From Cyanidioschyzon merolae (taxonomy: Eukaryota): a stretch of 64,000 bases of DNA. Positions 887 to 53,439 of the stretch are shown here, one piece after another. The translations under genes and the position numbers were made by a program. The notes beneath the pieces are model-generated. The model had not been told where the DNA came from. It searched no databases and worked only from the letters and a program-made list of their open reading frames with translations. Within the stretch, counting starts at the first letter, position 1; the number at the start of each line of letters is the position of its first letter. The stretch lies in assembly GCA_000091205.1 (NCBI GenBank), contig AP006487.2; one strand, given 5' to 3'.

Positions 887-1267
887 CTAGCTTTCGAAAA
901 GTTGAACGGATGCGTTCGCTTTCCGTTCGCGTTCTTCGACTGCGTCCTCTTGATTTAACGGGACGGCGACGGCCACGAAGCCCTTGAAACCGTGATAAAC
1001 GTTTATGACGACTTTTTTCTCTTTATATACCTTGAACGGCTGAAAATGAGTCTCGTTACCCGACACAGGCTTGGGTTTCAAAACAAAAGCTGGTTGATAT
1101 TCTCCATCGTCCTTCATCAGCTCTATGAGCCTCTGTCCATTCCGTCCCTGTAAACGGGGAATCTTCAGCAATATCCGCCAGTGCTCGTCGCAAACTTTTG
1201 CCCATGCTTTGTACTTGCTCACGAAGGACAACTCTTTCTTCTTCTCCTCTACTTGACCTGTTGGCAT
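887..1267 (-). CDS. Hypothetical small basic protein of 126 aa from the first ATG. It has a weak, unverified resemblance to the SRP9/SRP14 Alu-binding fold
   Basis: The ORF 887..1279 has its first ATG at 1267 (MPTGQVEEKKKELSF...). It is lysine-rich and matches no diagnostic motif. The start was chosen because the track's upstream start is GTG. Confidence 0.25.
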   Translation of the reverse strand: MPTGQVEEKKKELSFVSKYKAWAKVCDEHWRILLKIPRLQGRNGQRLIELMKDDGEYQPAFVLKPKPVSGNETHFQPFKVYKEKKVVINVYHGFKGFVAVAVPLNQEDAVEERERKANASVQLFES

Positions 1268-4200
1268 GCATGTGGTCACTATGCTCTATACCAGTCTTTT
1301 CTTCCAAGGGATCTAGACGCGCGAGGTGGATACCATGACAGGAACTCGCCCAACTTATTTATGTAAGAGTCGACTACACTTCAAGTACCTTTGGGCACCG
1401 TCTCCTCCGTGAGCAAGCCCATGTAAAGGAGCCGTCGCTCTGCTCCATCCAGCGGACGAGCAGAGAAGCAACAGTCATCCGGGGCTGGTTTGAGTTCGAG
1501 AACGACTGGTTGGAGAACAGATTCACATATACGAGACAAGCAACTAGTGATTCTTATGTGTGGAAGTGACTTATGGAAACGGAGACGACGCCTTCGACAG
1601 ACTGAACCATTCGAACGGGTTGGTAAGCAGAGCAACTCAACGCCGATTTCAACCGCGTGTTCCTCGACTGCTTCTGAGTGACGGATAGCGGCTCTGTCCA
1701 AGAGCAGGAGAAGGGAATTGCCGAACGAGATGCTCCAAGCATTGCGTCTCACGAAGCATGGGGTTTCAATGACCCTGTCCGTTTTACGAGCCGTTGGCGA
1801 CTCTACAAATGAATACCTATACGCGTTACGAATCTCGGAATGCTCGATTGTCTCTTCTCTATGACCAGTGATTTGCCCTTCTTGGAGATGCCATATACAC
1901 GTCCACTATTCTTCCTGAATAGGGTCTCACCGAATGAGACGAATACCCGCCTCTCGTGTAGTGAGCGTTCGTATTCCAGTGCGAGATCGATCGGGTGTGT
2001 GTTGTGAGGCACGCGACGGTCTCGCCTAGAAGTGTGCGTTCCTCTTTGTTCGTCCGTGTTTCTTCGTCACCGTTCGTATCAGCAGTATGGAAAGTTCATG
2101 TTGCGTGGGTTGTTTGATAGCCTTTCATGGACGACATAGAGGGTGGAAAAGATTGACGGGGCTAGGTTCGAGCTGATAGCGTTTGATCGACTTTGGTCTG
2201 GACGCACAACGTTCCGAATATTGTCTACGAGACGGGTGATTCGTCCACTTGCTGACCGTTGAATGACTGACTCAAAGTATGGTCGTTCTTCGCAGACTAA
2301 AATTCACAGCATCAAATCTTTCCGTGATGTTTCTCCAACCCACAAAACGCAATATGTTTGAGTACCTATGGAGCAAACAACCAAAAGGCAAAACAGTGCG
2401 TGCTGGTGCATGTGTGCCGAAAAATTCACTGCTCAGCCTGATACTGCGCTCTCGGCCAGGCACACGGACTGCAGCGCTCGATGACTCCGGCCTTTGGAAG
2501 ACGATGCGTATCACATGCAGACGACGCTGAGCATTTCGCGAACTGCTGCCCGCATGGGTCCTTTTCTAGTGGAACAGTTCATTTTCGAGCATGGCGAATA
2601 TAGCAGTTTTCTCTCTGAAAAAGTATCATGGCTTTTATGTCTATGATACAGCGGAACTGACCGACATCTGCGTCGCGGCTTAAATAAAACTGATTCAACG
2701 CTACTGTTGTTCCTGAAAAAGGCAACGCTACACCTACCTGCATTTTTTGTTTTCTTAGCGCCCGTGCGCGCCTGTATCCTCCATCTGAGCAACTGAGGCG
2801 GCGACCCTGTCCCGCGCGCGCAGGACTCGCCCGGTCTTACTCTAGAGCAGTTGCGCTTTCCAGTGCTACCACAAAAGCAGCACAACGGAGCGAAGGACAG
2901 CTGGCCGCTCTTCATTCTCTTATGCTACAACTCCTTCGTCCTCTCGATCGATTCGGATGCCGTGAGTCGGAAAATCAATTTGCAAATTCGTTGCCCGAGG
3001 GCGCCGCAAACTCTGCCCCTCGAGTGAGTCGAACACCGATGCTGTGAAACGTTACGTCCTCAACCGTTCTCCATGGGCACGCGCGCGGTTCGAACCAGCG
3101 TCTGGCGCGTTTGCTCGCGATGCCCGTTCTCCAGTAGGGCCAGCATTAGAAGACGCCACGACTAGACGGGCTCCAGACTCAAGCTTCTTGAGCGCTTACA
3201 TAAAGCCAGCGTGCACAGAGGCTCCGAGAAGCGTTGGCATCTCTCCATGGCGTTTGCGACGACGCATCCGGCCGTGCAGTAAGCGCCTGCGATCGTTCGG
3301 CGCATGGAGCATCTCCGGATTCATCATGCCAAGTTTCGAAGTCGAATGCTGCGCTGGATATCCCGAAGCGTCGAAGCATCCGTGGACTGACTGAGGCCTC
3401 TTCTCTTCCTCTTGAGATCGTCCACGAATACTGAACAGTATAGTTGTATCCGTCATTCCAACTAAGTCATGAGATGGATATTGCGCACCAGGAAAATAAG
3501 GGAAAAGTGCTCGTGGTCTACGCAACCAGCATACTGGAGTTGGGGTGCAGACGAAGCCCGCGGGCAGTATCTTTACAAACAGCACGGCGAACCAGCGACA
3601 TCCTTCCGAACGAATGAGCGCGGGTGCTTGTACACCACGGCGATGTTGAACGCTCTGCGCCCTGTTACAGACCCGCACCTGTTTCATGGAAGAGTACCTG
3701 GATCATACTCCTACTCACGCATGATTTTACGTATGTAGGATGTAACCTTATTTACACGAACAACGGGATACCGACTAAGCGATGATTATCTACATTTAGG
3801 AAAACCTTCCGCAGTTCGCACGAGATCTCCGAGGTCCACCTGCAACCAACATCCGCACCCCCATTCGAAGATCATAGCAGAATCAAGCTACCCTCCGGGT
3901 GTCGAGCTTGCCATAACCATCCTATAGGCTTTAAGCTCAATTGTATTCCATCTCCAGGTGAATGGAATCCGACGCTTTTTCGCGGTTTCTAGCAGAAGTG
4001 TTCGACGTGCGTCTATGATCAAAGAAAAAACTCCACGAGAGAGGCAAGGACATGGAAGCCGGGCATCATGGGAGGCCTTGATCGCCAGCTGCCGGACAAG
4101 GAAAGAGACATGCCCTTCTTGCCGACTATCGAGCGAAGAAGAGCAAGTAACGAAGAAGCACAGGGCAGGCAGGAATGCGTCTGCTGTTCATCGCGAAACA

Positions 4201-8582: not shown

Positions 8583-9122
8583 AAGCTGTCCGGTCGAGAT
8601 ACGCTCTATTGAAAGAATCGGATCGCTGGAGTTTCTGAAGGAGCCGCGCACCCGCGCCCATCAATGGAGCTCAACCAGCTACCGCGACGTACTGGAGGTG
8701 CCGCGAGCCTTCGCTTCGGCGAGAATACACGCTTCATCATGAAACTGAGACGAGATCATCGTTATCCGGGCTCATTCAAGGCGCGAAATTTCGCAAGTCC
8801 GCTGCTTGGGATTTTCCGCAACGAGAGCGCATTGTCGCTCGTGGAGGCACTCGCATGGCCGCAGCGGAACCTAGCGCGAACCCGTTGCAACCGGACATCT
8901 AAATTGTCCAGCTAGGGGAAACTTTGTTTCAAGGTTGATGAAGCTTGAAGAACCGAAGAAGACACGATGCTGAGACCCCGAATATCCTGCTGTTTTCGAC
9001 CATGCAGCGGAGCCCGGATAGGGTCATCGGCGCTTCTTGCTAATCTTTTGGCAACCACTGATGCCATGCACTGAAAGCGAATGCCAATTGTGGTTCAACG
9101 CTACGCCAATGTGTCAGATTAA

Positions 9123-10262
9123 CATGGAACACTGAACTGCATGATCTGTGGCTGCATTTCGATTTTTTACGAAGCTTTTTAAGATGTCTAGCCTCGATAT
9201 CCGGAGTGCAGTGATGCGGGCTCACGGTTCCATGCATAGATTCAGGATTCTCGGTAGTGTTTTCGGAGTGACTCCCTCCGCTCTTTGAAGCTGGAATTCG
9301 GTACTTTATCGGAATTAAGATGATTCGTGACGCCATCGATCAGCGGTTCATAGAATAACAGATGCCAATATCGAGTCTATACGTACGAGCGTCCACGCTT
9401 CCCCTTTCGTTACGTGTAGCGTGCCCAGGTCACGCATGCTTCAAGTCTTCGATCGCTCGGTTTCACGGCAACTCATGGGCGCAGCGATCCGTGCCGTTCA
9501 ACAGACGATGTGGAAGATTCGCCTTAGTCAGTTGACGACCTGTTCAGAAGCTCATGCCGGGAGTTCCCTGGACTTTTCGCACCAAATGATGAAAGGACTG
9601 TTCGGAAAACGAATCCTATGCTCTCTGTGGATATCCACGCAGAGGCATCCCATTGCAGCACGATACCTCCCGCATGATACGCTCCATGCGGCTCCACAGT
9701 CTTCCGTCTACATCGGAAGGGGTCTTGGAGTCGGGCTCGAGCCATTGCTGCGATCGTTTCGAATAGTGCATATGTCACCGGAGTGCACTAGCGGAGCGTT
9801 GAAGGATAGAAACTTCTCGTCCTCTTCTCTGTCCTGGATTCTCCTAGTGGTACTTGTTTCATCATGGTCGACATCGCGTTCCACAAAGACTCGATCGAAC
9901 GTGACGCAGAGCGCTTTCGAGTGCAGCGTCCAGACTGCTCGCTGAGGGCATCGACCCAAAGAAACCCGTGATCATCGGATACGACACGAGGCGCAGAAAC
10001 AAAGCATGGCATCAAGGCGAGCCACCTGTACCCGGACTGGGCATGTACCGAGCGTTACAGCAAGTGCTCAAGCGCCGCAGTAAAGTCCCCATAGGAGGAG
10101 TCTGGGTATTATTTCGTAACACTTGACCGCAGCCAAGTGTTACCGGCGCGAAGGGCTCGCCGCAGCTGTGGAGAAGTAAGATGAGCATGGCAAGCGAACC
10201 GTTGATCGCCCTTGCATCTTTGCACGGAATACGTCGATGACAGCCTGAGGCAGTGAAATCGG
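9123..10262 (-). mobile_element. Copy A of a 1.14 kb dispersed repeat, forming an inverted-repeat pair with 19126..20265
   Basis: ORFs 9421..9945(+), 9524..9778(-), 9788..10015(-) and 9040..9336(-) are essentially identical at the protein level to ORFs in 19372..20389 on the opposite strand. Boundaries were mapped to the points where nucleotide similarity ends: ...cagtgaaatcg at 10251-10261 and ...ttccatttta. Confidence 0.75.
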
Positions 10263-11781: not shown

Positions 11782-12842
11782 TGAGTGCGGAAGTTGCTTC
11801 ACCGGAGCAACATTGTAATGGACTGGTCTGTTCACCGGTTCGGGCAACTAGGCAGGCACATGTCTGAAACTTGCCTTCACACTTTCGAAAAAGTCACAGA
11901 TTCTGCGGAAATATGCAGCGCATTTTTTCGGCAGGAACTCCTGGTTACTTTGCATCTACTCGCATTGTATGAGTATTTCTGAAAAATTCCCTATGTAGCT
12001 ATCTTTGATGGCGAAAAGCCTCGTATCGTTACCCCGCTCTGTTGGAATTACACACGAGGAGACTGCCTGTACGGCACCGCAGAAGAATGCTGTCAGCTGC
12101 GTTAAGCTTGGCAGCATGTGCTGATTCCGGACTCTGCAAAGACAACTGTACACCCTATCGGAGCTCTTACGCACTTTTTTTGCGAAATCTGGTAAATCTT
12201 GGAGGATGCATCGTCTTCTACACGCGAAGACGGTCCAGCTCTCTCCAGTGTCAAGCACTTTCCCCTCAAAAAACGCTGGACTCGACAGAGGCTCTAAAAA
12301 TGAACTCTGCACCTATCAATACTGAGTGTAGTGAGCGGCGGATGTCTTCCCTGGTGCACCCAAGGTGTGAGCGACGTAATACGTGGGCGTCTCATACAGA
12401 AACGAAGCCTGCTCTGGTCACGTTGGGCGCACAGGCTCTAGCTCGGGTAGTCACGCTTGTAAATAAACTCTTGGCTCAATGATGGGTCAAGTTTGCGAGA
12501 CTCATAGCCCTGTGCTCCGCGGCTCTGCCAAACGATGTTTCCAGGCGCTCAACACAGCTGCAAGCGTCGTCCCGAGCTGCGGGAAAGCACACTGTTTAAG
12601 AACTCTGTCCGAGGCGACCTCGTGCTCGCTATAAAGCCGTTCTGCAGTTCCCAATGCATCCAGCAGATCCCGTGCATAGAAAGACTAGCACTCATGCCTC
12701 AATCCGTAGCCAAGTGCAGCCCTGCGGCATTTTGAAGGACATATGAGCACTGTAGAATACGTGCAAGTTTCCGGTTCCGTAGGTTGTCTTTGCGGGCCAT
12801 GCCTATGATTTTTCCAGTTCAGTGGAAAAGAATATCCCAAGA

Positions 12843-15148
12843 TCATATACGGTAAATTAGTCCGCACCCGCATACTCTTACCCGCCTTTCTCGACCTGAC
12901 CCTTCAATCGGTTTCAGGTGCTCGCTGTATACTTCGATTTTGAGAGGTTGCCAAACGATGATGGCTCGTGTCAGCTGCTCGGGTCTCTTCTCCGGCACTG
13001 CGCATCTCCTGATATACATAGCGGCATTAAAGTCTCGGTTCGCACACTCCACACCTTTCTCGCCTCTGTTTCTACTTACGAATGCGACTAGTCCTCGAAC
13101 TTTCGCCCTCCTTTCCATTCGCTCTTCCGTCAGCGGTCCGTACTTTTCCATATCCTCAGAGCGTCAATGGCACTTTTCCATCTCGTCCCTCTGGAGCGGA
13201 CACCCCAACTCGTATTGTATGCATGAAGTTCGGAACTTATCTACATGTATCGTAACAAAACGCCGTGCGTACTCCTTGTACGCTCGTGGCGACGGAGCGG
13301 GCGTACACTCCTTTTGTTTTGGCGCCCAGCGCTCTGCTTCACACGCTGTTACGAGCCTTTGACTATCGTCTTCCTTGAGGGCGCCCAACTGGTTGGAAAA
13401 GCTCGCGAATAGACACTGCTCCCCACAGTACAAGTTCGTGTGGTGACGAGCCCACCAAGCCGGTACTTTGGAAACCCCTTGCACAGATCCTCGTAATGAG
13501 CAACGCGAATTTTCACGAGCTCCCGAAAATCTCGAAAGTCCGCTCCGCGGATACGCACCTGGCTGATCGCTTCCAGCTCTTCCTTGACTCCTGCATTCCA
13601 TGTCTCAATTTTCTTCCTGGCATTCATTATACCGGATTCTCGGTCATAGCTCGCTCTCGCGAACTCCAAAAGTCGCGTGTCTTTCTCGCATAAGTTGCCG
13701 TCAATACCATCTTCCCCAGGCTTGGGTACTGCGATGATTATGGTATTCGTATTTCCGCGGTCCGTGCCAACGACACGGTCGTTCTCCTGCACCGCCGGCG
13801 TCGCAGGATCCGCCTTCTTCTTTCCTTCATGCTCCGTCACGGGTGACAACGAAGATGGAACCGGGCGATCCGTCCTCAGGCGCCGTCAGTGAACACCTAT
13901 GGATACCCTATCGGTTTCGACGATCCCCGCGGATACCCCTCGCATGCTCGTTTTGAGACGCTTCAGATCGAGGATATTCTTCCAATACGTTTCCCGGCTC
14001 TCGCCGATGAATTCCTTGTTGCTTACACAGAACTCTAGACTGATCTTCCTCATGATCCAGTAGAGGACGCTGGAGTTGATGGTCACGAAATCCGACTTGA
14101 TCCCGCAAATCCAAACAACGTTGAAGCGCTTCTCTCGTAGGAAAGCCTTCCGTTTGTCCGACTCTCGATTTTTTAGGGCCGGCGCCATATCGGCCTTGCG
14201 TTCGCGCTCTCGGTTCAGGAACACGAAATAACGCAGGATGAGGGAATCGCACCTTTTCCATCCTTTTTCATATCTGATATCTTTTCCGCTGGGTTGACAA
14301 GCCCTAAGACCGCACGGTGCTCTTGCATAGCCGCACGGGCCACGGAAGCTTCATTCATACTCCGGTTTGAAGTCTCCTCGTGGACGAATTCGATCTCCCG
14401 TTCACTCCTGCTGTCGTTCGTGATGCCATCGATGCTGGCCCGTCTGCCTCTGCGAGAGATACCCGGGTAGAGTGCAAAGACGGCGCGTATCATGAAGCGT
14501 TTGAGGCTCATTATGAAATGGTTCTTCAGGTTCGTGAGGTACTTTTCACCCCGTATGTGTAGATATCCGCGCCGTCCCTGTGCCGAGTACCGTTGAAGCG
14601 GTATTCCTTGTGATTTTCGTGGAGGACATGCACTCGCTCATTTCTCCTCGGCGTTTCCCCTGTGCCAACCATCAGGAGGCGAATAAAGGTCCTGTTGATA
14701 AACTCTGCCGGAACCTCGACTCTTCGAATTTCCGTCACGTTGTCGTACATCTTCGACAATGCATCAGTCCTGAAGAAGCCTTTATAATACTCATAGCGTA
14801 AGACGCGACACGTTTTTTTTTGATGACCTCATGCGTTATTTGCTTTAGGGATCCTTGCTGCGGCGTAGAAGAAGGGCTTTGGCTCCTATCTCGTCGTACT
14901 GTCGACTTGCTCGCAGCTTTTGACGTCTGGCATCCTTCTTTCGCTTCTTCGTCCTGTCGTGTTCCTCTTTGCTTGGCACTGCGTTCCGTTTTTCGTCGGA
15001 AACCGCGACACCAGGCCCTCAGCATCATCGACTTGCAGCCCCATATCTTTCCTTTAGATTTTTCTTTCTTCACAATCAACGCACTTCGAACGTGCCTGCT
15101 GTAAACCACGATAAAGAATTTGATTACAACCATCTGCGCGTAGAACAC
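12843..15148 (-). mobile_element. TnpB/Fanzor-like RNA-guided-nuclease gene, about 2.3 kb. It is frame-disrupted, by frameshifts or introns, so it is either a pseudogene or an intron-containing gene
   Basis: Collinear minus-strand ORF fragments span the region: 14735..15148, 14526..14759, 14215..14511, 13886..14224, 13349..13849, 13164..13601 and 12843..13151. Diagnostic motifs appear in the canonical order. RuvC-I is VVGTDRGNTNTIIIAV. The RuvC-II glutamate lies in RVAHYEDLCKGF. The pre-Zn block is YKEYARRFVTIHVDKFRTSCIQYELGCP, which fits the L.YKAE..G..V..VD..YTS..C pattern. RuvC-III is ECANRDFNAAMYIRRCAV, which fits ..DRDVNAAINI.. At least three frame changes occur between the fragments. 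Confidence 0.6.
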
Positions 15149-15247
15149 GGTTGACTTGGAAAACTATCAGGTTCCGGGTAGTCGCTTCGCGCACGGCAGT
15201 GGCAAACGCTCGTCTGCGATTTGCGAGCTCTGCAGACTCGTTTTGAC

Positions 15248-19125: not shown

Positions 19126-20265
19126 CGATTTCACTGCCTCAGGCTGTCATCGACGTATTCCGTGCAAAGATGCAAGGGCGATCAACGGTTCGCTTGCCAT
19201 GCTCATCTTACTTCTCCACAGTTGCGGCGAGCCCTTCGCGCCGGTAACACTTGGCTGCGGTCAAGTGTTACGAAATAATACCCAGACTCCTCCTATGGGG
19301 ACTTTACTGCGGCGCTTGAGCACTTGCTGTAACGCTCGGTACATGCCCAGTCCGGGTACAGGTGGCTCGCCTTGATGCCATGCTTTGTTTCTGCGCCTCG
19401 TGTCGTATCCGATGATCACGGGTTTCTTTGGGTCGATGCCCTCAGCGAGCAGTCTGGACGCTGCACACGAAAGCGCTCTGCGTCACGTTCGATCGAGTCT
19501 TTGTGGAACGCGATGTCGACCATGATGAAACAAGTACCACTAGGAGAATCCAGGACAGAGAAGAGGACGAGAAGTTTCTATCCTTCAACGCTCCGCTAGT
19601 GCACTCCGGTGACATATGCACTATTCGAAACGATCGCAGCAATGGCTCGAGCCCGACTCCAAGACCCCTTCCGATGTAGACGGAAGACTGTGGAGCCGCA
19701 TGGAGCGTATCATGCGGGAGGTATCGTGCTGCAATGGGATGCCTCTGCGTGGATATCCACAGAGAGCATAGGATTCGTTTTCCGAACAGTCCTTTCATTA
19801 TTTGGTGCGAAAAGTCCAGGGAACTCCCGGCATGAGCTTCTGAACAGGTCGTCAACTGACTAAGGCGAATCTTCCACATCGTCTGTTGAACGGCACGGAT
19901 CGCTGCGCCCATGAGTTGCCGTGAAACCGAGCGATCGAAGACTTGAAGCATGCGTGACCTGGGCACGCTACACGTAACGAAAGGGGAAGCGTGGACGCTC
20001 GTACGTATAGACTCGATATTGGCATCTGTTATTCTATGAACCGCTGATCGATGGCGTCACGAATCATCTTAATTCCGATAAAGTACCGAATTCCAGCTTC
20101 AAAGAGCGGAGGGAGTCACTCCGAAAACACTACCGAGAATCCTGAATCTATGCATGGAACCGTGAGCCCGCATCACTGCACTCCGGATATCGAGGCTAGA
20201 CATCTTAAAAAGCTTCGTAAAAAATCGAAATGCAGCCACAGATCATGCAGTTCAGTGTTCCATTT
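19126..20265 (+). mobile_element. Copy B of the 1.14 kb dispersed repeat, the inverted partner of 9123..10262
   Basis: ORFs 19372..19599, 19428..19679, 19442..19966, 19609..19863 and 20051..20389 duplicate those of copy A on the opposite strand with only 1-3 aa differences. The right end is ...gcagttcagtgttccatttta at about 20265. Confidence 0.75.
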
Positions 20266-21091
20266 TAATCTAGCGTGGGTGGACGCAACCTTAGCTTGCA
20301 CTGTTGCAGCGCGAAGACAGGTCACTATGCGCTCGCTTGTCCGTTCATTCCAGCAGCAATCATGCAGTTCGGGCGTTGCATACTTTTGAGAGATAACAGT
20401 ATTTTTACTATTCGGCGAGGATCGGGCAGCGATCAAAGGATAAATCGACCCGCAACGCATGGTATTACATAATCAAAGAATGCAGTAAGAAACTGTTCAG
20501 CGGCAAGCGTCCACATGCTCCCGACTGCAAGATCCAGCATCGTGCGTTCCCGGTTATCCGCAAAAGCAGCTGCCGCATGATTCCCAGCGCGCCTCATGTT
20601 GGTGACGATGCAAACGTAGCGTACGCGCTCAAAACGCTCGAGACGCTCATGGACGCGGCCGAGCTGCGACCCTTGTCCCGTTGGACAGTATAAGTTTAAG
20701 CAACTCACAGGAACAAGATTATTTCGCGGATTACGGAAGGTGCCAAGGCGATACAGCTGCACACCAGGTATCACTATCTCGAACAGATTCACGTATTCTG
20801 TTCGATGAGTATTCAAACGGCCTGCATGCCTTCGAGCTGCGTCGTGCGTGGCCGCATCTAGCCATGTTTTGGGCTACAGATGTTCTGGATCGCCACAAAA
20901 CAATAGATGACAGGCGGAAGATTGCCACGAGAAAATGATACTGTTCAAATTCTGGGGCAATTCCATTCGGCGCGTCCCGTAGACACTTTCTGATAATCCA
21001 ATCCCACAGATGTCCACAGAGCACGGTTTGCTGTGATAGATTCGAACGGTTTGGACGACTGCCGAAGAAATCCTTCCTGGGCAACTTTGCA

Positions 21092-22783: not shown

Positions 22784-23159
22784 CTTTTCGAAAGGCACAA
22801 ATTATCTTCCTCCCCGAGGTGCAGCCGCACCGTCCATCACCAGGACGTACACACTCTCACCAGTGAACTCGGATTGAATGGTCCAGAGGATTGGCGGCGG
22901 ATGGCGGCCGCCGCACGGCTACTTCGCCGCGGCAGTCCGCCGCCGCACATGCTTGGAGTCGCTCGCGCGCCATGGCCGAATCGCATTCAGCTGAACTCTG
23001 TTCCTCTCCTTTTTAGAGAAGGAAATTGAAATCGATATGCAATGCATCCTATGGATCGGAGACGAATTGCCCCTAGGATGTATGTTTCACCGAATAGTGC
23101 AGGGATGATTGTATTTCTCTTTCAGGGCAATCATAATATAATTATCAGGTAGTTAAGGA

Positions 23160-24500
23160 ACACTGGAAGAAAGAAAAAGATGCGCTGCCCGCCAAAAACC
23201 GATATTCTCAAACCGTGTTTGTGGGCAATGGTAGAAAAGGACCCGTTGAGCACTTTACGGAAAGCAAAGAGCGACGATAGTTGCCACCACGGGCGTCTCT
23301 GTTTCCCAACAGCTTGTTCGCTTGGTCCTGAAACCCCTAGGATACAGTCGCGAAAAAAGAGTCCTGGTTCACGCACGGCCATCTTCCATCTAAATCGCAA
23401 TAACAGCGTTCCTGAAACTCGGGGATCGGTATGCAGTACAGAGACGTTGATTTGTATTTTCAGTCGATGAGACTTGCCTCGGACCAAACGTTGGTACATA
23501 TTTGAGTATTCGCGGAGAGGGAGCCCGTTGTATGTACGATCGCTCTCGACGAGAACGAGGGCATCATCTATTCTAGCTGCGGTGGATTCATTTGGCGGCC
23601 GCCGTTTTGCTGGCACAGAGGGCTCGCACAACAGGACCAACCACTTTGTCCAACCATTGAAGACTCTTCCCTGCCGTCTGGCGACGTTCCCCTATCGGAA
23701 ATCGTGGGGTATAACCATTCCCCTGGGGTTCGAGTTTTCGAAGAATCTTTCGGGGTAGAGCTGTTTTTCATTCCTCCACACGCTCCAGGGTTGAAGCCCA
23801 TCTATGGAGTGTTTTCTATCGTGAAACGTTATGATCGCCTCACCGAGCGCATCGCTGCAGCTTTCTGTACACGGTGATACAGCGGCACATTCCGTCCTTC
23901 TTCTGCAAGTGCCTCTCACTCCGGAAAGATCCTCATCTAAGCGAATAAAGGAGAACGTTCATTTGATGAAATAAAAAATCCGAGGGAAAGGTACGGTCAT
24001 ATAAGTCAAGGATCCTGGAGGTACATGTCGTCGGCTGACAAAAGAAAATGAAAAATCCTCTTCTCGCCGACCATCGAGCGAAGAAGAAGAGGGGAGATAG
24101 ACCAGGAAAGGTGTTTGCCCTGCGGGACAAAAACTAGACTGTAGGGTCACTGACGGCACGAGTTCTAGGACTCCCTGAACAGCTAAATCCCATCAAAAGC
24201 AACAAATGCATATCGTTCTTGAACGGAGACTTCAACGACGCCATCAATATCAGACGATGTGCAGTGCTGAATACGAGGCCTGCGGAGCTGACTCGACCGA
24301 ATGTTCTGGGGCAACCTCTCAGGCTCGAAGTCTACAGAGAGAAGCTGAAGCCGATGGCAGGGCGCCTTTCGGGAAAGGCTGTGAGGCGTCTGCGAGTGGG
24401 TTACATAAATAGAAATATATGCTCTATAGTAGCGAACGGTTTTCCGTTTTGCTCTATATATAGGTTCGATTTGAAACACATTCTCAGCAGGGCGTAGCCT
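23160..24500 (+). mobile_element. Internally deleted, non-autonomous derivative of the Fanzor/TnpB-like element. It retains the C-terminal region including the RuvC-III motif
   Basis: The plus-strand frames show three blocks: KKKMRCPPKTDILKPCLWAMVEKDPLSTL (23180..23470), YSRRGSPLYVRSLS...AAVDSFGG (23474..23758) and GDFNDAINIRRCAV...LKPMAGRLS (24219..24497, TTG start). Together these are homologous to 51904..53010(-) and to the RuvC-III/C-terminus of 12843..15148(-). The RuvC-I and RuvC-II segments are absent. Confidence 0.5.
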
Positions 24501-35763: not shown

Positions 35764-37036
35764 TTAGAATAAAATGGAATGGGCCCACTTACCTTATTCT
35801 GGCGTGTAATCAAACTCTCTTGGTCTCTTCCAGTTGTGATCAACAACGGACTTTTCGGAGCCTCCTCAGCAACTGCTTCCTTTTCGTACCTCTTATCTCT
35901 TCCATTGAAAACACCAGCATCTCGTTTCCTCAAGCTCCGCTATTCACTGGCAAAGGGTGACGACGGCAGCGTGAGCGTCCTCATTTCGCAGCCTCCAGTT
36001 GTTTTCCCGTGCATTTCATGCGCAGGCGGTAGTTGCCATCTCCGCACCCCTAGCCATGAGCATCTTCTTCTCATACTGCCACGATGTGCCCTGTGCAGCG
36101 ATGGCGCTCGGCAGGGGTCGCATGACCCTGTGCGCTCACCCCACCCCTCTTTCGAGGATCGTCCTGTAGCGCGTGAAGGCTTCTTCCATCGTTCGTCACG
36201 TGTCCTTGACATGTAAACAGGGTTCCATGCGATGTCTTTCTCCGTTACAACGCGCCCGGCGCCGTTCCCGAATATCACGAGCTTCTTCTGGACGATCCTC
36301 ACCGCAAACACACCGTACGCACACACGTAGGAGTACGCTGTTCCGTTCGGTGGAGGATTTGTGGAGCGCTTCGTAGTTCACGGTGAAACAAGCACCAGAA
36401 GTCAAAAGCAGTCTGCAGAGCAAGTGGAGATATTTCGAGCCGTCTGCGCTCCCTTCGAGCAATGGAGTGACGCACTCTTTATCAGAGGCGATCGCTGCGA
36501 TGACTCGAGTCCGAGTCCAGGGCCATATCCCATCCTGGCAGAAGAGACGGGATCTTCCAGGGGCACGTCCCGTAAAGCATACCATGCCGCTGTAGAATGC
36601 CGTCTCGTCGGTGGCCGCAAAGAGACGGGGATCTGTCTCGCGGGTGGAATCGAAGATTAACTGGTATGAGAAATTCTGTGTTCTCGCAGAAGAAGCTTGT
36701 GATGGAGTCGCTATGCGGTGACGTCGAGGTTGTTTCTCGTAATCGATCCAGTGGCGCAGCGCGCTGCGTTCTCGAGTTGCACTGGGACAGATAAATCGAA
36801 CGTCTGCTGGCTGCTTGCATTCAGCCTGATACACGTAGGAGAGAGAGAAGAGCAGGGCATCGACGTGTGAATGGACAATAATATAGGTTGCTTTACGAAC
36901 GGTATTCGCGGGCGTTGCGTTCCATCTTGATACCGGTGAACTAGGGAAGAAAGCGGAAAGGCGTCGAAGGTGACACTCCGAATAAACTACCGAGAACTCC
37001 AGAATTAGATGTATATCTGTAAGCACTTTCTGTAGT
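35764..37036 (-). mobile_element. Copy 1 of a ~1.36 kb repeat family, called R1 here. It is slightly truncated at one end relative to copy 3
   Basis: The 353 aa ORF 36196..37257 is identical to ORFs 40595..41512 and 46783..47700 from residue ~73 onward (EVLQKVLTDIHLILEFSVVYSECHL...). Antisense ORFs 35779..36216, 35940..36326, 36361..36660 and 36383..36595 are also duplicated. The end is TTAGAATAAAATGGAATGGG at 35764. Confidence 0.75.
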
Positions 37037-39201
37037 ACTTCGAGTTTAGAGTCTTTGCATCCTAAACAAATTCTAAAAGAATCGAAAAGCTGGAACACAG
37101 CAGACAGTTCACTGTTTGATATCCTTATCTGACATGGGTATGAAATCAGAGGGAGGGCGACTGCCAGTGATGACGTTCTTGTTGTTTGCCAGCAACGCAT
37201 ATCCGTGCGGGGTACGGTGTAACGCAAGTCCAAGTTCTTGTGAAATTTATGATGCAAAACGCCAGCCGATCTGAGTTTTCAGGGTTTCAGTGTGTCCGCC
37301 ATGGTTTGTAAAGCTGTATCGATGGATGCATACCAAATGAGCCGTAAATCACGTGCGTGAAGAACTGGAGCATGCCGACAGTCTGGGCCGGGCGCTCCAG
37401 GCATTCTTGCACGGACGTTTTGGACGAATTCCAACCGCTGCTTTGTTGATGTTGACTATTCGTTGTTTTAAGGAGTCTCGTAATCGTCTTTTGGTATCGC
37501 GGCTGAACGCTCAGAGGTGCACTCTAGTATAGTGATCGGTCTTGCGAATGAAAGCCGCTGCGCGTTACGCGCAAAAACCATTAACTGGCGAGCAAATGCG
37601 CTCTAACAGCGGTCTCAAGTGCGATGCCTCGTATTCAATGGTAGCGACTAGGCACCCGAAGCAAATCTACAGTCTCGAAAGGGACATACGACAACCAGAC
37701 TTTGAGTCGTAGAACACGCGAGATATTCGATCGGCTTCTGAACGTTTCTGGGCAGGGGGCTCGCCAGTTCCTTAAGAGAACTGCTAGCATGCGGCGTATT
37801 CCGTGGAAATAACGGCCCTCGTTATCGGGGCGCCATTGATGCTTCAACTTGCAATCGAATAGAAGATATCTGTCCTGCTGTACACACACAGGCCAGCGAC
37901 CATTTATTTGAAATATGAATCCCTGCACTTCACGCTCCTTCGTCACTCGCGCGATTTTGTCTGCACCCTATCACAGGGTTTTCACATTCGAAATGTAGGC
38001 TAGCCCCATCTGGGTGCCACTCGGGCGCTTATTCATCTCTGAATCAACCCCTGACTTTCTTCGACTTCTTGCACTGTGGAGAGCTCATGCACGGACATCG
38101 GTGGGGCACTGGTGCAGAACCACTATATGAATTCCGGCTTCTCAGCATACAGACTCTGGCCAGCATCTCGTATGCGCTGCCTGACCATATTTTCAACGAA
38201 GGCAACGCGATCGCTGTGCATTGACGTTCAGAATCCAGGACCTCACTGGCGACGCTTATGCTCGCAACTACCGCGCTGCTGCTAAGCCTCCTGCGCAAGC
38301 ATAGTATCGACCTCAATGCCGCAGTCGCTACGTCACCAGTCCGTGCCGGTAGCGGCCTGACGCGCGTTGCTCGCCACCGCCAAACCTCTCCGTCAAGCAA
38401 TTTGGCCCTTTTCTGATACGGAGCTTGTTTAGCGCTTCCACGGGGACAGGGCGCGATCGTACAGCCAGAGCGTGTACTCTTCCAGGGACAACTGCGCCCC
38501 CTCTTTCCAAACTGCAGTGTGCTTTTCTGACCATCTCATGCGTCTCCTATCGAATCTGCTCTTTCATCTCATCATCAAGAAAATTCGCGGTCAAAGTCAC
38601 CGGAAAAAGAGAAAACTCGCACTGGAGCTACCGCTCCATATCCTAGTTCGGTTGCAATACAAGAGTAGAGGAACCTCGAGATATTTTCCTAAGCGGCGCG
38701 CGTTCCCTGCCACCACTGGCTGCAAGGCGGAGATTCTGGGGGCCTCGAGTTGCGTGGCGCGCGGGTGTGGCAACTGGTGGTTTACGTCTCCGTTAAGCGC
38801 TTATCTGACATAGCACTGCGTCGTGCTTCCCTTGTGTGTTCCTGGCGCGTGGAACAACGAACAGGGGACCAGCATAATGATTCAGGGAAAGAATTAGACG
38901 GAATTAGGACGACACTCAGGGAGGCACCCGCTGGTGCTTCGTTCAAGAGGCTTTGACACCTTTGAACGTTCAGAAGGCAGCTAGAACACTCCAGGCGCAA
39001 CCAGCATTGCTACCGCCTCGGGCGGCTGCGCCCCTTGTGTTGTGTGCTCTTAGTGAAGGTGCCTTTTTAGCTGGGCATCTGCTTTCCAAGATTGGCTTTC
39101 CTGACGGAAAACGCTGGCAGTGAAGGCTGAGGGAGCGTTTTCCTACGTGATTTGACACACAAACAGGTATACTATTGTTCACGCACAGTCTATACTCAAA
39201 T

Positions 39202-40497: not shown

Positions 40498-40586
40498 CAT
40501 TGATGTATTCTCTGACCATTGCGAATATAACCATGCTAGCCTCCTGATCAAGCAACAGTCATTCTGTACACTCAAGTCAAATTAAA

Positions 40587-41885
40587 ATGGAACAGTGAAC
40601 TGCTCGCTTTCATCTTGCCATTCGATCCTTTTTCTGGAACTTTTGACATTGACCAACTCGGCGTTCGAAGTGCTACAGAAAGTGCTTACAGATATACATC
40701 TAATTCTGGAGTTCTCGGTAGTATATTCGGAGTGTCACCTTCGACGCCTTTCCGCTTTCTTCCCTAGTTCACCGGTATCAAGATGGAACGCAACGCCCGC
40801 GAATACCGTTCGTAAAGCAACCTATATTATTGTCCATTCACACGTCGATGCCCTGCTCTTCTCTCTCTCCTACGTGTATCAGGCTGAATGCAAGCAGCCA
40901 GCAGACGTTCGATTTATCTGTCCCAGTGCAACTCGAGAACGCAGCGCGCTGCGCCACTGGATCGATTACGAGAAACAACCTCGACGTCACCGCATAGCGA
41001 CTCCATCACACGCTTCTTCTGCGAGAACACAGAATTTCTCATACCAGTTAATCTTCGATTCCACCCGCGAGACAGATCCCCGTCTCTTTGCGGCCACCGA
41101 CGAGACGGCATTCTACAGCGGCATGGTATGCTTTACGGGACGTGCCCCTGGAAGATCCCGTCTCTTCTGCCAGGATGGGATATGGCCCTGGACTCGGACT
41201 CGAGTCATCGCAGCGATCGCCTCTGATAAAGAGTGCGTCACTCCATTGCTCGAAGGGAGCGCAGACGGCTCGAAATATCTCCACTTGCTCTGCAGACTGC
41301 TTTTGACTTCTGGTGCTTGTTTCACCGTGAACTACGAAGCGCTCCACAAATCCTCCACCGAACGGAACAGCGTACTCCTACGTGTGTGCGTACGGTGTGT
41401 TTGCGGTGAGGATCGTCCAGAAGAAGCTCGTGATATTCGGGAACGGCGCCGGGCGCGTTGTAACGGAGAAAGACATCGCATGGAACCCTGTTTACATGTC
41501 AAGGACACGTGACGAACGATGGAAGAAGCCTTCACGCGCTACAGGACGATCCTCGAAAGAGGGGTTGGGTGAGCGCACAGGGTCATGCGACCCCTGCCGA
41601 GCGCCATCGCTGCACAGGGCACATCGTGGCAGTATGAGAAGAAGATGCTCATGGCTAGGGGTGCGGAGATGGCAACTACCGCCTGCGCATGAAATGCACG
41701 GGAAAACAACTGGAGGCTGCGAAATGAGGACGCTCACGCTGCCGTCGTCACCCTTTGCCAGTGAATAGCGGAGCTTGAGGAAACGAGATGCTGGTGTTTT
41801 CAATGGAAGAGATAAGAGGTACGAAAAGGAAGCAGTTGCTGAGGAGGCTCCGAAAAGTCCGTTGTTGATCACAACTGGAAGAGAC
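40587..41885 (+). mobile_element. Copy 2 of the ~1.36 kb R1 repeat. It carries an intact 305 aa ORF and lacks the terminal ~58 bp at its right end
   Basis: It starts ...AAATGGAACAGTGAACTGCTCGC at 40587, an end shared exactly with copy 3 at 47707. ORF 40595..41512 is 305 aa with only 1-2 aa differences from copies 1 and 3. Similarity to the other copies stops after ...ggaagagac at about 41885. Confidence 0.75.
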
Positions 41886-41967
41886 AAAAACAGAAAAAAG
41901 TAGGCCAAGTAAGGTCTATTGAGCTGCTCGATTTTATTTCGACGTGGGCGTGGTGCGTGCGCACGAG

Positions 41968-46350: not shown

Positions 46351-47707
46351 TTAGAATAAAATGGAATGGGTCCACTTACCTTATTCTGGCATGTAATCAA
46401 ACTCTCTTGGTCTCTTCCAGTTGTGATCAACAACGGACTTTTCGGAGCCTCCTCAGCAACTGCTTCCTTTTCGTACCTCTTATCTCTTCCATTGAAAACA
46501 CCAGCATCTCGTTTCCTCAAGCTCCGCTATTCACTGGCAAAGGGTGACGACGGCAGCGTGAGCGTCCTCATTTCGCAGCCTCCAGTTGTTTTCCCGTGCA
46601 TTTCATGCGCAGGCGGTAGTTGCCATCTCCGCACCCCTAGCCATGAGCATCTTCTTCTCATACTGCCACGATGTGCCCTGTGCAGCGATGGCGCTCGGCA
46701 GGGGTCGCATGACCCTGTGCGCTCACCCCACCCCTCTTTCGAGGATCGTCCTGTAGCGCGTGAAGGCTTCTTCCATCGTTCGTCACGTGTCCTTGACATG
46801 TAAACAGGGTTCCATGCGATGTCTTTCTCCGTTACAACGCGCCCGGCGCCGTTCCCGAATATCACGAGCTTCTTCTGGACGATCCTCACCGCAAACACAC
46901 CGTACGCACACACGTAGGAGTACGCTGTTCCGTTCGGTGGAGGATTTGTGGAGCGCTTCGTAGTTCACGGTGAAACAAGCACCAGAAGTCAAAAGCAGTC
47001 TGCAGAGCAAGTGGAGATATTTCGAGCCGTCTGCGCTCCCTTCGAGCAATGGAGTGACGCACTCTTTATCAGAGGCGATCGCTGCGATGACTCGAGTCCG
47101 AGTCCAGGGCCATATCCCATCCTGGCAGAAGAGACGGGATCTTCCAGGGGCACGTCCCGTAAAGCATACCATGCCGCTGTAGAATGCCGTCTCGTCGGTG
47201 GCCGCAAAGAGACGGGGATCTGTCTCGCGGGTGGAATCGAAGATTAACTGGTATGAGAAATTCTGTGTTCTCGCAGAAGAAGCTTGTGATGGAGTCGCTA
47301 TGCGGTGACGTCGAGGTTGTTTCTCGTAATCGATCCAGTGGCGCAGCGCGCTGCGTTCTCGAGTTGCACTGGGACAGAAAAATCGAACGTCTGCTGGCTG
47401 CTTGCATTCAGCCTGATACACGTAGGAGAGAGAGAAGAGCAGGGCATCGACGTGTGAATGGACAATAATATAGGTTGCTTTACGAACGGTATTCGCGGGC
47501 GTTGCGTTCCATCTTGATACCGGTGAACTAGGGAAGAAAGCGGAAAGGCGTCGAAGGTGACACTCCGAATAAACTACCGAGAACTCCAGAATTAGATGTA
47601 TATCTGTAAGCACTTTCTGTAGCACTTCGAACGCCGAGTTGGTCAATGTCAAAAGTTCCAGAAAAAGGATCGAATGGCAAGATGAAAGCGAGCAGTTCAC
47701 TGTTCCA
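46351..47707 (-). mobile_element. Copy 3 of the ~1.36 kb R1 repeat, taken as the apparently full-length reference copy
   Basis: The plus strand begins TTAGAATAAAATGGAATGGG (46351) and ends ...GAGCAGTTCACTGTTCCATTT (47707). These termini form an imperfect inverted repeat, TAAAATGGAA / TTCCATTTTA. ORF 46783..47700 (305 aa) and the antisense ORFs are identical to those in copies 1 and 2. Confidence 0.75.
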
Positions 47708-51642: not shown

Positions 51643-51903
51643 AGCGCGGAGCGATCAAGCTTCCACGAAAGAGAGGCTCACAGCACAAAGACTGCCGCTA
51701 CCAAGGAATCAATCCTTTGTGCCTCCTCCGGCGATAATACGCGATCCAGTGCAGGCCAGACAGCTCTGGGACCAAAACGAATACGACACAAAACTAAACG
51801 AGGGGAACGCTTCCTCTGCAGTGTCCAGCAAAGTTCACTGAAACGAAAATGTCTCACGACTGTAGAGTAATTTAGTACCGACGCGCAGGCGGCCCCTAGC
51901 CAT

Positions 51904-53010
51904 CTAGAACAGGCCTCCTGCTAATGGTTCCATTTTCTCCTTGCACACTTCGAGCCTGAGATGCTGCCCCACTAATTTCGATTGCGTCAGCTTCTCGGGC
52001 CTCGTCTTCAGCGCCGTACGTGTCCTTATATCGATAGCAGCGCTGAGGTCTCGATTCACGAACTCTACACAGGCTCTGCTGCAGGTAGCACTTACTTGGG
52101 CAAGGCGTCCTGGAACTCTTGCCGTCTGAGTGGTTTGCTGGCCTGTCAGCTCACCGTGCCTTTCTATCACCGACGCGTTCCGCTGGCGCCTCTCCATCTC
52201 GAGGTTCTGAAGTGTGTACCCCAGGTAAGCTCTTGGGCTTTTTATTTCTTCAAAGTGAACGCACTTGTATATGACCTAAGACAAGTTCTTACCGGAGCGA
52301 CAAGAACTTCTGGAAGAAAGTGGAAGTGTGCGCTTGTGTCACCGTGTGCTGCAAGCTTCAGCGATTTGCTCAATGGAGCGATCTTTACGTTTTACGATAC
52401 TAAACCCTCGTTAGATACTGTTGAACCTCGAAAAGTGTGGAGGAATGAAAATCAGCTCTATCCCGATAGATTTCGCTAAAGCTCAAACGCAAAGGGAATG
52501 TTGAAGTACCACCATGTCCAATACAAGGACGACGCCGACATCAAGGAAAATCCTTCAATGATTAGACAAAGTGGGTGCTGTTGTTTGAGCCTTCCCTACG
52601 AGCGAAACTGATGCTGCCAAACGAATCCAGCGCAGATGGAGCATGCGATGATATCTTCATTCTGTACGAGTTCAATCGTTCATACAGAGGGCTCGCTCTC
52701 CGCGAATACCCATAAACGTTCCGACCGTTTCGTCTGAAGAAAGTCTCATCGACTGCGAAAAACAAACCGACGTCCGTGGATGTCATGCGGATGGCTGAGT
52801 TCCAGCAACGCGGTCGTTGCGATTTCGTTGGAAGATAACCGTACGTGAACTACGATTTTTTGCAATCGTATCCCAGTGTTTTCAGGACCACACGAACTAG
52901 CTGTTGAGAAAGAGAGATGTCAATTGTTGCTACGATTGTTGCTGTTGCCTTCTGTAAAACGTGATCAACGACTCGTTTCCCACCGTTGACCACAAACACG
53001 CTTTGAAAAG
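51904..53010 (-). mobile_element. Second internally deleted derivative of the Fanzor/TnpB-like element, the inverted partner family of 23160..24500
   Basis: Minus-strand frames carry the RuvC-III-like motif VNRDLSAAIDIRTRTA...LRLEVCKEKMEPLAGG (51904..52197), YSRRASPLYERLNS...ALDSFGS (52562..52786) and KKQEHVPPPRSDLFKACLWSTV (the C-terminus of ORF 52930..53388). These are collinear with the blocks in 23160..24500. Confidence 0.5.
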
Positions 53011-53439
53011 ATCGGATCTTGGCGGGGGCACATGTTCTTGTTTCTTTCCGTAATACCCGACCATCTGCTTTCTGTGGTACGACTGACCTGTAAGAGGAAT
53101 GCAGTCCCCCTTGCTCTGTTCAGCAAAGAATCTGTCCTTTAAGCAACTCGTCCGCGATCTACAAGGTACATTGCATAGTGATTTCGAACTTCTTCTCTTT
53201 ACTGCGAAATCGCATTCCGTCACACTCAGCGGGAGTGGAAAAAATGAGTTGAAAGACCAATGTGCGGATGCGGATACGATTCGTCGTACATCTTGTGTCA
53301 GCCAGTAGAGCTTTCTTGAGGCTACGTTTTGAAACTGGGACTCCCCCAACGTCTGAGCAACCAGGCTAACTGAGCATAAGTCTGGCAAGAGCCGCTTTGC
53401 AGCTTTTAGGGGCGGCTAACCTATGAAGCTCTGTTCAGG

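Follow-up and report, generated by a model that had tools for sequence, protein, structure and literature searches.

The two elements and the Fanzor1 pseudogene

Two related elements and a frameshifted Fanzor1 pseudogene lie in the window, the 64,000-nucleotide stretch of Cyanidioschyzon merolae DNA that was analysed here. The first element (e1; ~22981/23014-24456, +) is flanked by two divergent genes, one with a CCT motif (-) and one with WD repeats (+). The neighbours of the second (e2; ~53258-51833, -) are likewise divergent: a chalcone-isomerase-like gene (-) and an M20-type ORF (+), for which an exact-protein look-up returned no match. Alignment of e1 to e2 with blastn yielded 71.4% identity over 971 bp (E 1.6e-131) and a second segment with 68.5% identity over 251 bp, a repeat far beyond chance that confirms the homology expected of the pair. 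The original prediction, which had assigned the elements to 23160..24500 and 51904..53010, was correct in their location and in their divergent-ORF setting, but not in their extent. Segmental duplication was rejected as the source of the pair, as the flanks are unrelated and ~20 dispersed copies exist.

The Fanzor1 pseudogene (12818..15167, -) is a transposase-less copy of CMe-1A, as judged from identity to the CMe-1A consensus, translations and a shared right end. CMe-1A is a Fanzor1 family of C. merolae with a consensus given in Additional file 2 of Bao and Jurka (2013, Mob DNA 4:12; PMC3627910). As published, it is ~3.2 kb long, carries Fanzor only, is without TIRs, has an undetermined target duplication and is of unknown class, with about 150 copies that are ~80% identical to the consensus and with intact ORFs reported in some copies (PMC3627910). 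In line with this published value, positions 12928-15167 of the window are 79.5% identical to CMe-1A 787-3025 over 2256 bp. The pseudogene contains RuvC-I 'GTDRGNTN', RuvC-II 'VDKFRTS' (E to K) and RuvC-III 'NRDFNAA', giving a catalytic triad of D, K and D in addition to the frameshifts, where intact homologues read DPGNTN, VDEFRTS and NRDFNAAIN. Both its left and right ends are common to the family of e1 and e2. An isolated fragment of the CMe-1A family (3923..4099, +) comprises the left end and the Fanzor start, with 69% identity to CMe-1A 786-959 and 71% identity to e1 23964-24087.

Homology to Fanzor1 was tested on the profile of the parent family and not on e1 and e2 alone. A 51-sequence profile, built from an all-against-library HMMER search, matched the solved Fanzor1 structures 9cf0 (Parasitella, E 1.6e-21), 8gkh (Spizellomyces, E 4.3e-13) and 9cer (Guillardia, E 1.4e-7). 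Neither the stitched pseudogene nor a shallow profile of 23 sequences found a match in the PDB, Pfam searches with the Fanzor homologues yielded nothing except one weak Cas12f1-like TNB match, and AlphaFold2 gave no confident fold from the shallow alignment (mean pLDDT 34.5).

Transposase and Fanzor remnants within the elements

Approximately 850 bp of each element, about two thirds of its length, is a frameshifted DD34E Tc1/mariner-type (Pfam DDE_3) transposase pseudogene and not Fanzor. In e1, this pseudogene occupies 23042..23877 (+), as determined by three-frame translation, Pfam and alignment to P0092, an intact 335-aa DDE_3 transposase (E 2.5e-24 against Pfam DDE_3) to which the translations from both elements align. 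Three-frame translation of e1 revealed at least three frameshifts and at least three in-frame stops, and feature mapping placed the first catalytic D at 23463, the second D at 23692, the E at 23794 and the stop at 23875. In e2, the pseudogene (52339..53171, -) was identified by translation, Pfam and mapping and reads 'VDETFF...YGYSRRASPLY...LVLDM...FIPPHFSRFNSI*'. With translations stitched across the frameshifts, which the Pfam scores required, e2 reached 29.4 bits for DDE_3 (E 8.1e-7), exceeding the gathering cut-off of 28.6, and e1 reached 26.9 bits (E 4.9e-6) against the same cut-off; single ORF fragments gave sub-threshold Pfam matches only.

The consensus of 16 copies brings back VDET, LLLDNVAFHHS and PPYSPWFNPIE, with 34 residues from the second D to the E. 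Judged by this DD34E spacing and by the DDE_3 domain identity, the predicted transposase belongs to Tc1/mariner (IS630-Tc1-mariner). The catalytic D, D and E are putative assignments from alignment, and they are partly mutated in e1 and e2 themselves. Weak helix-turn-helix matches were obtained for an e2 fragment (HTH_33, E 0.17) and for intact P0092 (HTH_Tnp_Tc3_2, E 0.0037), and PF01498 is present in many close homologues of P0092.

These assignments change the reading of the peptide blocks that had drawn attention to the elements. Three blocks had been taken as collinear with the C-terminal third of Fanzor, and tblastx of e1 against the window links only e1 1151-1413 (24151-24413) to the Fanzor-like gene. 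The 'ILKPCLW' block of e1 lies in the putative helix-turn-helix region of the transposase pseudogene, and 'YSRRGSPLY...DSFG' lies directly past its first catalytic D; both blocks, the latter in its YSRR(G/A)SPLY form, sit in the DDE_3 transposase pseudogene. An annotation trap is thereby corrected, in which the conserved peptide blocks of a repeat were read as Fanzor and are mostly mariner transposase. The view of e1 and e2 as old transposon relics with internal deletions survives this correction; that of Fanzor derivation throughout does not, as two thirds of each element is something else.

Only the last 250-390 bp of the elements is Fanzor-derived, a portion that aligns with the 3' end of the window pseudogene (~12850-13230, -). 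The Fanzor1 C-terminal remnant of e1 (24152..24402, +) corresponds to CMe-1A 2840-3093, was located by tblastx to window 12849-13110 and by consensus translation, and reads '...RVLGLP', RuvC-III 'NGDFNDAINIRR' at ~24222 and then 'LKPMAG...RRLRVG'. That of e2 (51904..52228, -) matches CMe-1A 2742-3092 at 69% by blastn and is covered in part by an ORF at 51904-52197; it begins right past RuvC-II ('...LQNLEMERRQR'), contains RuvC-III 'NRDLSAAIDIR' and ends with 'MEPLAGGLF*', the e2 tail corresponding to CMe-1A 2728-3153. The expectation that RuvC-III is kept and RuvC-I and RuvC-II are missing was borne out, with the R of NRD lost in e1. As neither element has a complete split RuvC (D...E...D), both are best classified, on their sequence, as Fanzor-derived remnants and not Fanzor genes. 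With a frameshifted transposase and a Fanzor stub that retains only one of the three RuvC catalytic motifs, e1 and e2 at present code for nothing functional.

The consensus tail of the e-type copies (e1, e2 and their sister copies) is 80.4% identical to CMe-1A 2737-3088 over 352 bp, and individual tails are 69-72% identical to CMe-1A. At this ~80% level of nucleotide similarity, both the window pseudogene and the consensus tail can be assigned to CMe-1A. The left end and the spacer are also common to CMe-1A and the two elements. The differences are that e1 and e2 have the transposase pseudogene where most of Fanzor would be, are without the first 786 bp of the published consensus, which are TE-N2_CMe-like, and are unlike that consensus in their 3'-most ~60 bp.

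The subfamily/junction alignment shows two types of junction. In type A, represented by e1, the ~48 first and ~85 last Fanzor codons are kept, the 5' side (23940..24143, +) being the transposase-Fanzor spacer followed by the ~48 first codons with a mutated start codon. This segment was identified by alignment to CMe-1A 861-1054, in which the Fanzor ATG of the consensus is position 906, and is 79% identical to L001 7249-7320. In type B, represented by e2, the deletion begins just 5' of the Fanzor ATG and ~107 last codons are kept, with the spacer remnant at 52239..52266 (-) identified by alignment to CMe-1A 869-896 and by the junction alignment. The two junctions indicate that e1 and e2 probably derive from two independent internal deletions. 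A candidate RuvC-II in e1, 'SFDEIKNP', was rejected, as it is part of the spacer and Fanzor start aligned to CMe-1A 861-1054.

Element ends, sister copies and decay

The left end of e1 (22981..23041, +), defined by sister-copy alignments, consists of an inner part (23014-23041, 'TAGAGAAGGAAATTG...') common to all sister copies and a degenerate outer part (22981-23013), and most sister-copy alignments to e1 begin at 23014-23020. The left end is common to e-type copies and CMe-1A (z 5-13). In e2, the left end 'GGTCTTTCAACTCATT...TATGCAATG' (53172..53258, -), identified by left-end alignment and CMe-1A similarity, matches CMe-1A 785-862 significantly (z 4.9), unlike the outer left end of e1, for which no significant similarity to this segment was found (z 1.7). 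The 3' terminal regions, or right ends, were located at 24403..24456 (+) in e1 by a right-end alignment of 19 copies and coordinate mapping, and at 51833..51903 (-) in e2 by right-end alignment and mapping. The right end in the family consensus reads '...TTTGTTTCACTGACGA' and is followed by TA. Immediately before the left tip, 8 of 16 copies have TA and the remaining copies a one-base variant of it, a candidate target-site duplication. The tips of the consensus share only T[A/C]GTC...GACGA (~5 bp); its best inverted match fell below the shuffle mean, and no inverted repeat longer than ~5 bp was found. A 20-nt inverted repeat in e1 (23016-23035 / 24466-24485) was dropped as a candidate TIR, being absent from the sister copies. 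The elements had been described as non-autonomous derivatives with one end, which is contradicted by the retained transposase gene and by the presence of both ends in e2 and most sister copies.

Public metagenomes contain about 16-21 more loci in which the transposase is followed by the tail in the same way, and these are all ~70% alike. In most of 52 metagenome loci, a transposase pseudogene is followed within ~100-300 bp by a same-strand Fanzor tail that covers residues ~485-547 to ~585 and no other part of Fanzor; at ~9 of the 52, tblastn shows no Fanzor tail, and contigs mostly end there. Pairwise identities among e-type copies are star-like at 65-73%. Measured against the family consensus, pN/pS is 0.77 for the tail compared with 0.79-0.92 for the transposase, and both pS and pN are greater in the tail, which is if anything more diverged. 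Majority identity ranges from 0.69 to 0.83 in the tail and from 0.71 to 0.84 in the transposase, with no conserved sub-block. The e-type copies decay neutrally, and the protein-level blocks that they share, once attributed to constraint, reflect common descent. In total, e1 and e2 go back to a Tc1/mariner-like transposon that formerly carried a Fanzor gene, since mostly lost; the two copies are old and decayed, and represent an ordinary type of genomic fossil.

Intact relatives show an arrangement from which such fossils could arise. An intact transposase and a full-length Fanzor1 stand in tandem in L003, L058/L060 and L061; in L058/L060, a transposase of 298 aa and a Fanzor of 643 aa are separated by a 48-bp spacer. 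Imperfect inverted repeats of ~29 bp that start TATA(G/C)TCCGCC, with TA on either flank, bound these intact relatives. In L058, 21 of 29 positions are paired over 29 bp, which was equalled in 1 of 300 shuffles, and TA is present at both flanks; the repeat of L061 is similar, with the same TATACTCCGCC start. An intact transposase and Fanzor composite of the CMe-1A lineage itself was not found, the intact composites being relatives at 31-35% transposase identity.

Origin of the elements

We consider it very probable that e1 and e2 are dead Tc1/mariner-like copies that descend, via internal deletions, from a transposase-Fanzor1 composite. The ancestor in the CMe-1A/e-type lineage would have comprised a left end, a DD34E transposase gene, a short spacer, the Fanzor1 gene of CMe-1A and a right end. 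Two independent internal deletions of ~1.8 kb would have taken out most of the Fanzor gene, and the shortened elements, which could still transpose because the transposase gene and ends were retained, may then have spread to at least 16-21 loci before all copies decayed neutrally to ~70% pairwise identity. The CMe-1A-type pseudogene at 12818-15167 would be the reciprocal derivative, a Fanzor without its transposase.

This layout resembles known systems. Fanzor1 travels in autonomous Mariner/Tc1 elements (PMC3627910, PMC10530073), and PUl-1 of Pythium ultimum and PGv-1 (Bao & Jurka 2013), like Fanzor1c-Mariner/Tc1 (Jiang et al. 2023, PMC10530073), have a transposase followed by a same-strand Fanzor1. 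The likeness extends to the TA-flanked inverted repeats of the intact relatives L058 and L061, and PUl-4 parallels the transposase-less, Fanzor-only derivatives with the same ends. Unlike these elements, the e-type derivative kept the transposase and lost Fanzor, its consensus inverted repeats are down to ~5 bp, and all of its copies are pseudogenes. As in MITE-like internally deleted DNA transposons, both ends were kept and a shortened form was amplified; the difference is that the e-type deletion took the passenger nuclease gene and spared the transposase, so the derivative was presumably autonomous when young.

Alternatively, a short deleted CMe-1A element could have inserted in or beside the 3' end of an unrelated mariner-like element, with the resulting chimera then spreading. 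Fanzor elements are often chimeric (Bao & Jurka, PMC3627910), CMe-1A is itself composite, its 5' end being formed by TE-N2_CMe, and the missing intact composite of this lineage would fit. We nevertheless regard this origin as unlikely: the same ~100-bp left end stands 5' of the transposase in e-type copies and 5' of Fanzor in CMe-1A, the spacer before the CMe-1A Fanzor ATG is found in e1 and e2 after the stop of the transposase, two independent nestings at one place would be needed to account for both junctions, A and B, and the relatives contain intact tandem units. The tail might instead have been kept under selection, with the elements acting as satellites that supplied an omega-RNA and right end to a Fanzor protein in trans. 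Both deletions left 300 bp or more at the 3' end intact, where Fanzor omega-RNAs map along with the transposon end (PMC10530073), and intact ORFs are reported for some CMe-1A copies (PMC3627910). Moreover, folding better than that of shuffles (z -3.7 and -3.5) is confined, within the element, to the final 220 nt of the e-type consensus. An omega-RNA may indeed once have been encoded in the retained 3' end of the ancestral element. However, the tail is no better conserved than the transposase, the e1 tail itself folds no better than shuffles (z -1.0), Rfam returned no match, and the 3' regions of intact relatives reach only z -1.8 and -1.1. RNAalifold on 16 tails gave -1.2 kcal/mol against -0.65 +/- 1.0 for shuffled columns (z -0.5), revealing no shared structure where a conserved omega-RNA segment had been proposed. 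Such selected satellites are accordingly quite improbable.

Regulatory co-option, in which the elements are kept as promoters or enhancers of flanking genes or target open promoter chromatin, appears highly improbable. At least one gene 5' end adjoins the element in 15 of 16 loci, often within 30-350 bp, and the element is co-oriented with tandem flanking genes in 8 of 9. The latter count replaces an apparent bias towards co-orientation with 14 of 16 downstream genes, as divergent and convergent contexts fix the answer by construction. The supposed preference for divergent promoters dissolves when independent loci are counted, only 6 of 16 having divergent genes where 25% would be expected by count. 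The flanking genes of the loci are unrelated to each other, and sequence decay is neutral, no sub-block being conserved. Moreover, almost any site at which a compact genome tolerates an insertion will lie close to a promoter. The promoter-adjacent position of e1 and e2 reflects where a compact, intron-poor genome tolerates insertions, and for the host genome these intergenic kilobases are neutral fossils, not regulator candidates.

Under descent from a transposase-Fanzor1 composite, CMe-1A is tied through common ends to a DD34E Tc1/mariner-like transposase, in agreement with the general picture of Fanzor1 in autonomous mariner-type elements. The elements e1 and e2 suggest this transposase, which would have mobilised the composite, as the mover of CMe-1A, a known but unclassified red-algal Fanzor family. 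A mutually dependent pair, in which CMe-1A gave Fanzor1 in trans and the Fanzor-less derivatives gave the DD34E transposase together with a working omega-RNA and right end, is a speculative and improbable extension; if true, the so far unclassified CMe-1A would be a mariner-mobilised family. The two kinds of copy, transposase with a Fanzor 3' stub and Fanzor only, are natural reciprocal decay products that could be used to ask which 3' part of Fanzor the transposon requires in cis.

Transposase and Fanzor parts of the elements

The two elements, e1 (~22981/23014-24456, + strand) and e2 (~53258-51833, - strand), align by blastn over 23015-23977 and 53198-52239 (71.4% identity, E 1.6e-131) and over 24152-24401 and 52126-51877 (68.5% identity). 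The Fanzor-like locus, a pseudogene at 12818-15167 (-), matches both solely in their 3′ ~250-350 bp, through 12850-13230 (-). The homology of the two elements and their link to this locus, as originally predicted, are therefore real. The same window comparison yielded a 128-bp fragment matching the family at 4016-4142.

Of the three blocks said to be common to the Fanzor-like locus, only the RuvC-III ‘NRD...’ block with its C-terminus proved to be so. Three-frame translation of the first ~950 bp of each element gave a single reading frame interrupted by frameshifts and stops. With frames stitched across the breaks before scoring, the e2 translation matched Pfam DDE_3 at 29.4 bits (E 8.1e-7), exceeding the curated cut-off of 28.6 bits, and the e1 translation scored 26.9 bits. 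A two-sequence profile of these translations retrieved several pseudogene fragments and an intact 335-aa DDE_3 transposase, P0092 (DDE_3 E 2.5e-24), with a weak Tc3-type helix-turn-helix match. In the alignment with P0092, ‘YSRRGSPLY’ pairs with ‘YSMRGTPLY’ directly past the first catalytic ‘DET’, ‘FIPPHAPGLKPI’ pairs with ‘YVPPYSPWYNPIE’. ‘ILKPCLW’ falls within the N-terminal, DNA-binding part of the transposase. On the strength of the DDE_3 scores, this alignment and the position of ‘ILKPCLW’, the first two blocks belong to a mariner-type transposase instead of a Fanzor protein, a caution for motif-based reading.

These copies form a family and not a single pair. A single scan across public metagenome contigs gave 52 loci, representing about 16-21 distinct sites; the e1 and e2 loci themselves were recovered as contigs L005/L006 and L032/L039/L040/L042 (99.0-99.8% identity), and the remainder are paralogous copies with 65-73% mutual identity in a star-like pattern. 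In most copies a transposase pseudogene leads, within ~100-300 bp and in the same orientation, to a Fanzor remnant of just the final ~40-110 residues; the tail was undetected in about nine loci, mostly through the contig ending there. A 16-copy majority consensus restores ‘VDET’, ‘LLLDNVAFHHS’ and ‘PPYSPWFNPIE’, the DD34E arrangement, together with an open tail, ‘TLQKVEMEK...FVNRDFNAAINIRRCAV...LKPIAGGRSKKAGRRLRVG...’.

Relationship to CMe-1A and Fanzor1

The repeat CMe-1A of Cyanidioschyzon merolae was described with about 150 copies at ~80% identity to a 3,169-bp consensus that encodes a 734-aa Fanzor1, with no terminal inverted repeats, an undetermined target duplication and an unknown class; TE-N2_CMe corresponds to its first 635 bp (Bao and Jurka 2013, PMC3627910). 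The window’s Fanzor pseudogene is 79.5% identical to CMe-1A consensus positions 787-3025, and the consensus tail of the family is 80.4% identical to positions 2737-3088. TE-N2_CMe copies occur in the window at 48531-49156 (-, 82% identity) and 58119-58531 (+, 66% identity), both standing alone and apart from any Fanzor sequence, and because of this separation the published CMe-1A consensus seems to join two distinct repeats. An isolated ~180-bp fragment at 3923-4099 (+), 69% identical to the consensus, comprises the CMe-1A left end and Fanzor start, and is enclosed by a spurious 174-aa ORF.

Homology to CMe-1A 785-862 (z 4.9-13 versus shuffles) extends over the leading ~80-100 bp (‘TA TAGTCTTTCAACTCAG...TATAGCAGGAG’) of e2 and most sister copies; for the outer left end of e1 the same shuffle test gave no recognisable similarity. 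The spacer 5′ of the Fanzor ATG in CMe-1A is the sequence found past the transposase stop in both e1 and e2, and the right end is common to the family and the window’s Fanzor pseudogene. Junction alignment separated two subfamilies. Type A (e1, L007, L014, L030 and L025) keeps CMe-1A 861-1054, the spacer plus ~48 Fanzor codons, with the match taken up again at ~2840. In type B (e2 and ten others) the break is at ~896, 5′ of the ATG, and the match restarts at ~2728-2737, immediately past the RuvC-II motif. Neither type can have arisen from the other, so two independent deletions of ~1.8 kb each took place in a putative parent carrying transposase and Fanzor in tandem.

Intact tandems of this kind are present in relatives: L003 (335-aa transposase, 112-bp spacer, at least 535 aa of Fanzor), L058/L060 (298 aa, 48-bp spacer, 643 aa) and L061 (298 aa and 781 aa). 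The L058 and L061 units are flanked by ~29-bp imperfect inverted repeats starting TATA(G/C)TCCGCC, with TA on both sides (L058 4937-4965 and 8025-8053; L061 52-80 and 3809-3837; 1 of 300 shuffles equally good). These units come from unrelated metagenomes, and the terminal motif TATA(G/C)TCCGCC...ACAC is conserved, inverted and TA-flanked. Many homologous transposases lie on 3.1-3.3 kb contigs, about one element long, which suggests multicopy elements assembling as isolated repeats. In the e1/e2 family consensus just the tips T[A/C]GTC...GACGA are inverted, again with TA on both sides, and no longer inverted repeat rose above shuffles. An 11-bp direct repeat, TTTTGTTTCAC, lies ~20-31 bp from the left tip and ~15 bp from the right (about 53235 and 51845 in e2), scoring ~3 sd over the shuffle mean.

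The window’s Fanzor pseudogene carries ‘GTDRGNTN’, ‘VDKFRTS’ and ‘NRDFNAA’, and 90 close homologues have intact DPGNTN, VDEFRTS and NRDFNAAIN. Pfam matched the homologues weakly to DUF8286 (PF26935), the sole annotation of P0001-P0090 and of the Fanzor proteins at L001, L002 and L058, all of which the usual TnpB/OrfB models miss. PDB searches with a single sequence and with a shallow profile gave no match. HMMER run against the whole library gave 1,422 relatives, and a 51-sequence profile built from among them matched the solved Fanzor1 structures of Parasitella (9cf0, E 1.6e-21), Spizellomyces (8gkh, E 4.3e-13) and Guillardia (9cer, E 1.4e-7). As these alignments span the RuvC-I, RuvC-II and RuvC-III regions, the Fanzor1 label for the parent family of the tails is supported, and DUF8286 likewise appears to be part of Fanzor1.

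Published examples exist of autonomous Mariner/Tc1 elements that carry Fanzor1 and of Fanzor-only derivatives bounded by mariner ends (PMC3627910, PMC10530073), and a transposon specialist would find the present family unsurprising. Unlike the published Fanzor1-Mariner/Tc1 elements, the DD34E element in its commonest surviving form lacks the nuclease but keeps its 3′ ~300-390 bp; this form, reached by two independent deletions, and the sharing of CMe-1A ends with a DD34E-transposase element both appear undescribed within the searchable literature. The family helps classify CMe-1A.

Genomic placement, decay and RNA folding

Host genes in the window include those for a CCT-motif protein, a chalcone-isomerase-like protein, Thf1 and IleRS, a set that would suit a photosynthetic eukaryote with few introns, such as a cyanidiophyte. 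Both e1 and e2 do lie between divergent genes. The suggested preference for divergent promoter regions did not hold across the family: contexts at 16 independent loci were divergent in just 6, tandem in 9 and convergent in 1, roughly the proportions expected from intergenic space alone. Genes flanking different copies are unrelated to each other. Where the flanking genes are in tandem, the element points the same way as they do at 8 of 9 independent loci (L011, L012, L018, L019, L020, L023, L030 and L052, the exception being L021; p about 0.02), a mild bias of the sort that selection on transposon orientation typically leaves in compact genomes. At these loci the element’s 3′ end often falls just 30-350 bp short of the downstream gene’s start codon.

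Both e1 and e2 are dead: their transposase frames hold several stops and frameshifts, and RuvC-I and RuvC-II are missing from the Fanzor stub. Measured against the consensus, the transposase segments have a pN/pS of 0.79-0.92 and the tail one of 0.77; stops are equally dense in the two parts, and pS and pN are both higher in the tail. Column conservation in the tail is not above that of the transposase part, and the 16 tails gave no conserved fold (RNAalifold -1.2 kcal/mol versus -0.65 +/- 1.0 for shuffled columns), which counts against a conserved omega-RNA segment as the cause of the kept blocks. The e1 tail folds at only z -1.0, an Rfam search gave no match, and nothing points to a present-day function of the e1 and e2 tails. 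An omega-RNA in the ancestral element is plausible, since the 3′-terminal 220 nt of the consensus are predicted to fold at z -3.7 and -3.5 in two separate computations, and would fit the literature (PMC10530073); no other sense-strand window of the consensus element fell under z -1.2, and the 3′ regions of intact relatives reached z -1.8 and -1.1, no more.

Two other repeats in the window, unrelated to the Fanzor/mariner family, are very young, with copies 99.6-99.7% identical: one of ~1.3 kb at 35764-37043, 40585-41888 (inverted) and 46351-47710, and an inverted pair of ~1.15 kb at 9116-10261 and 19126-20271. Their ORFs (305-353 aa and 174 aa) had no match in a Pfam search; either a mobile element that was active not long ago or recent gene conversion may account for the repeats.
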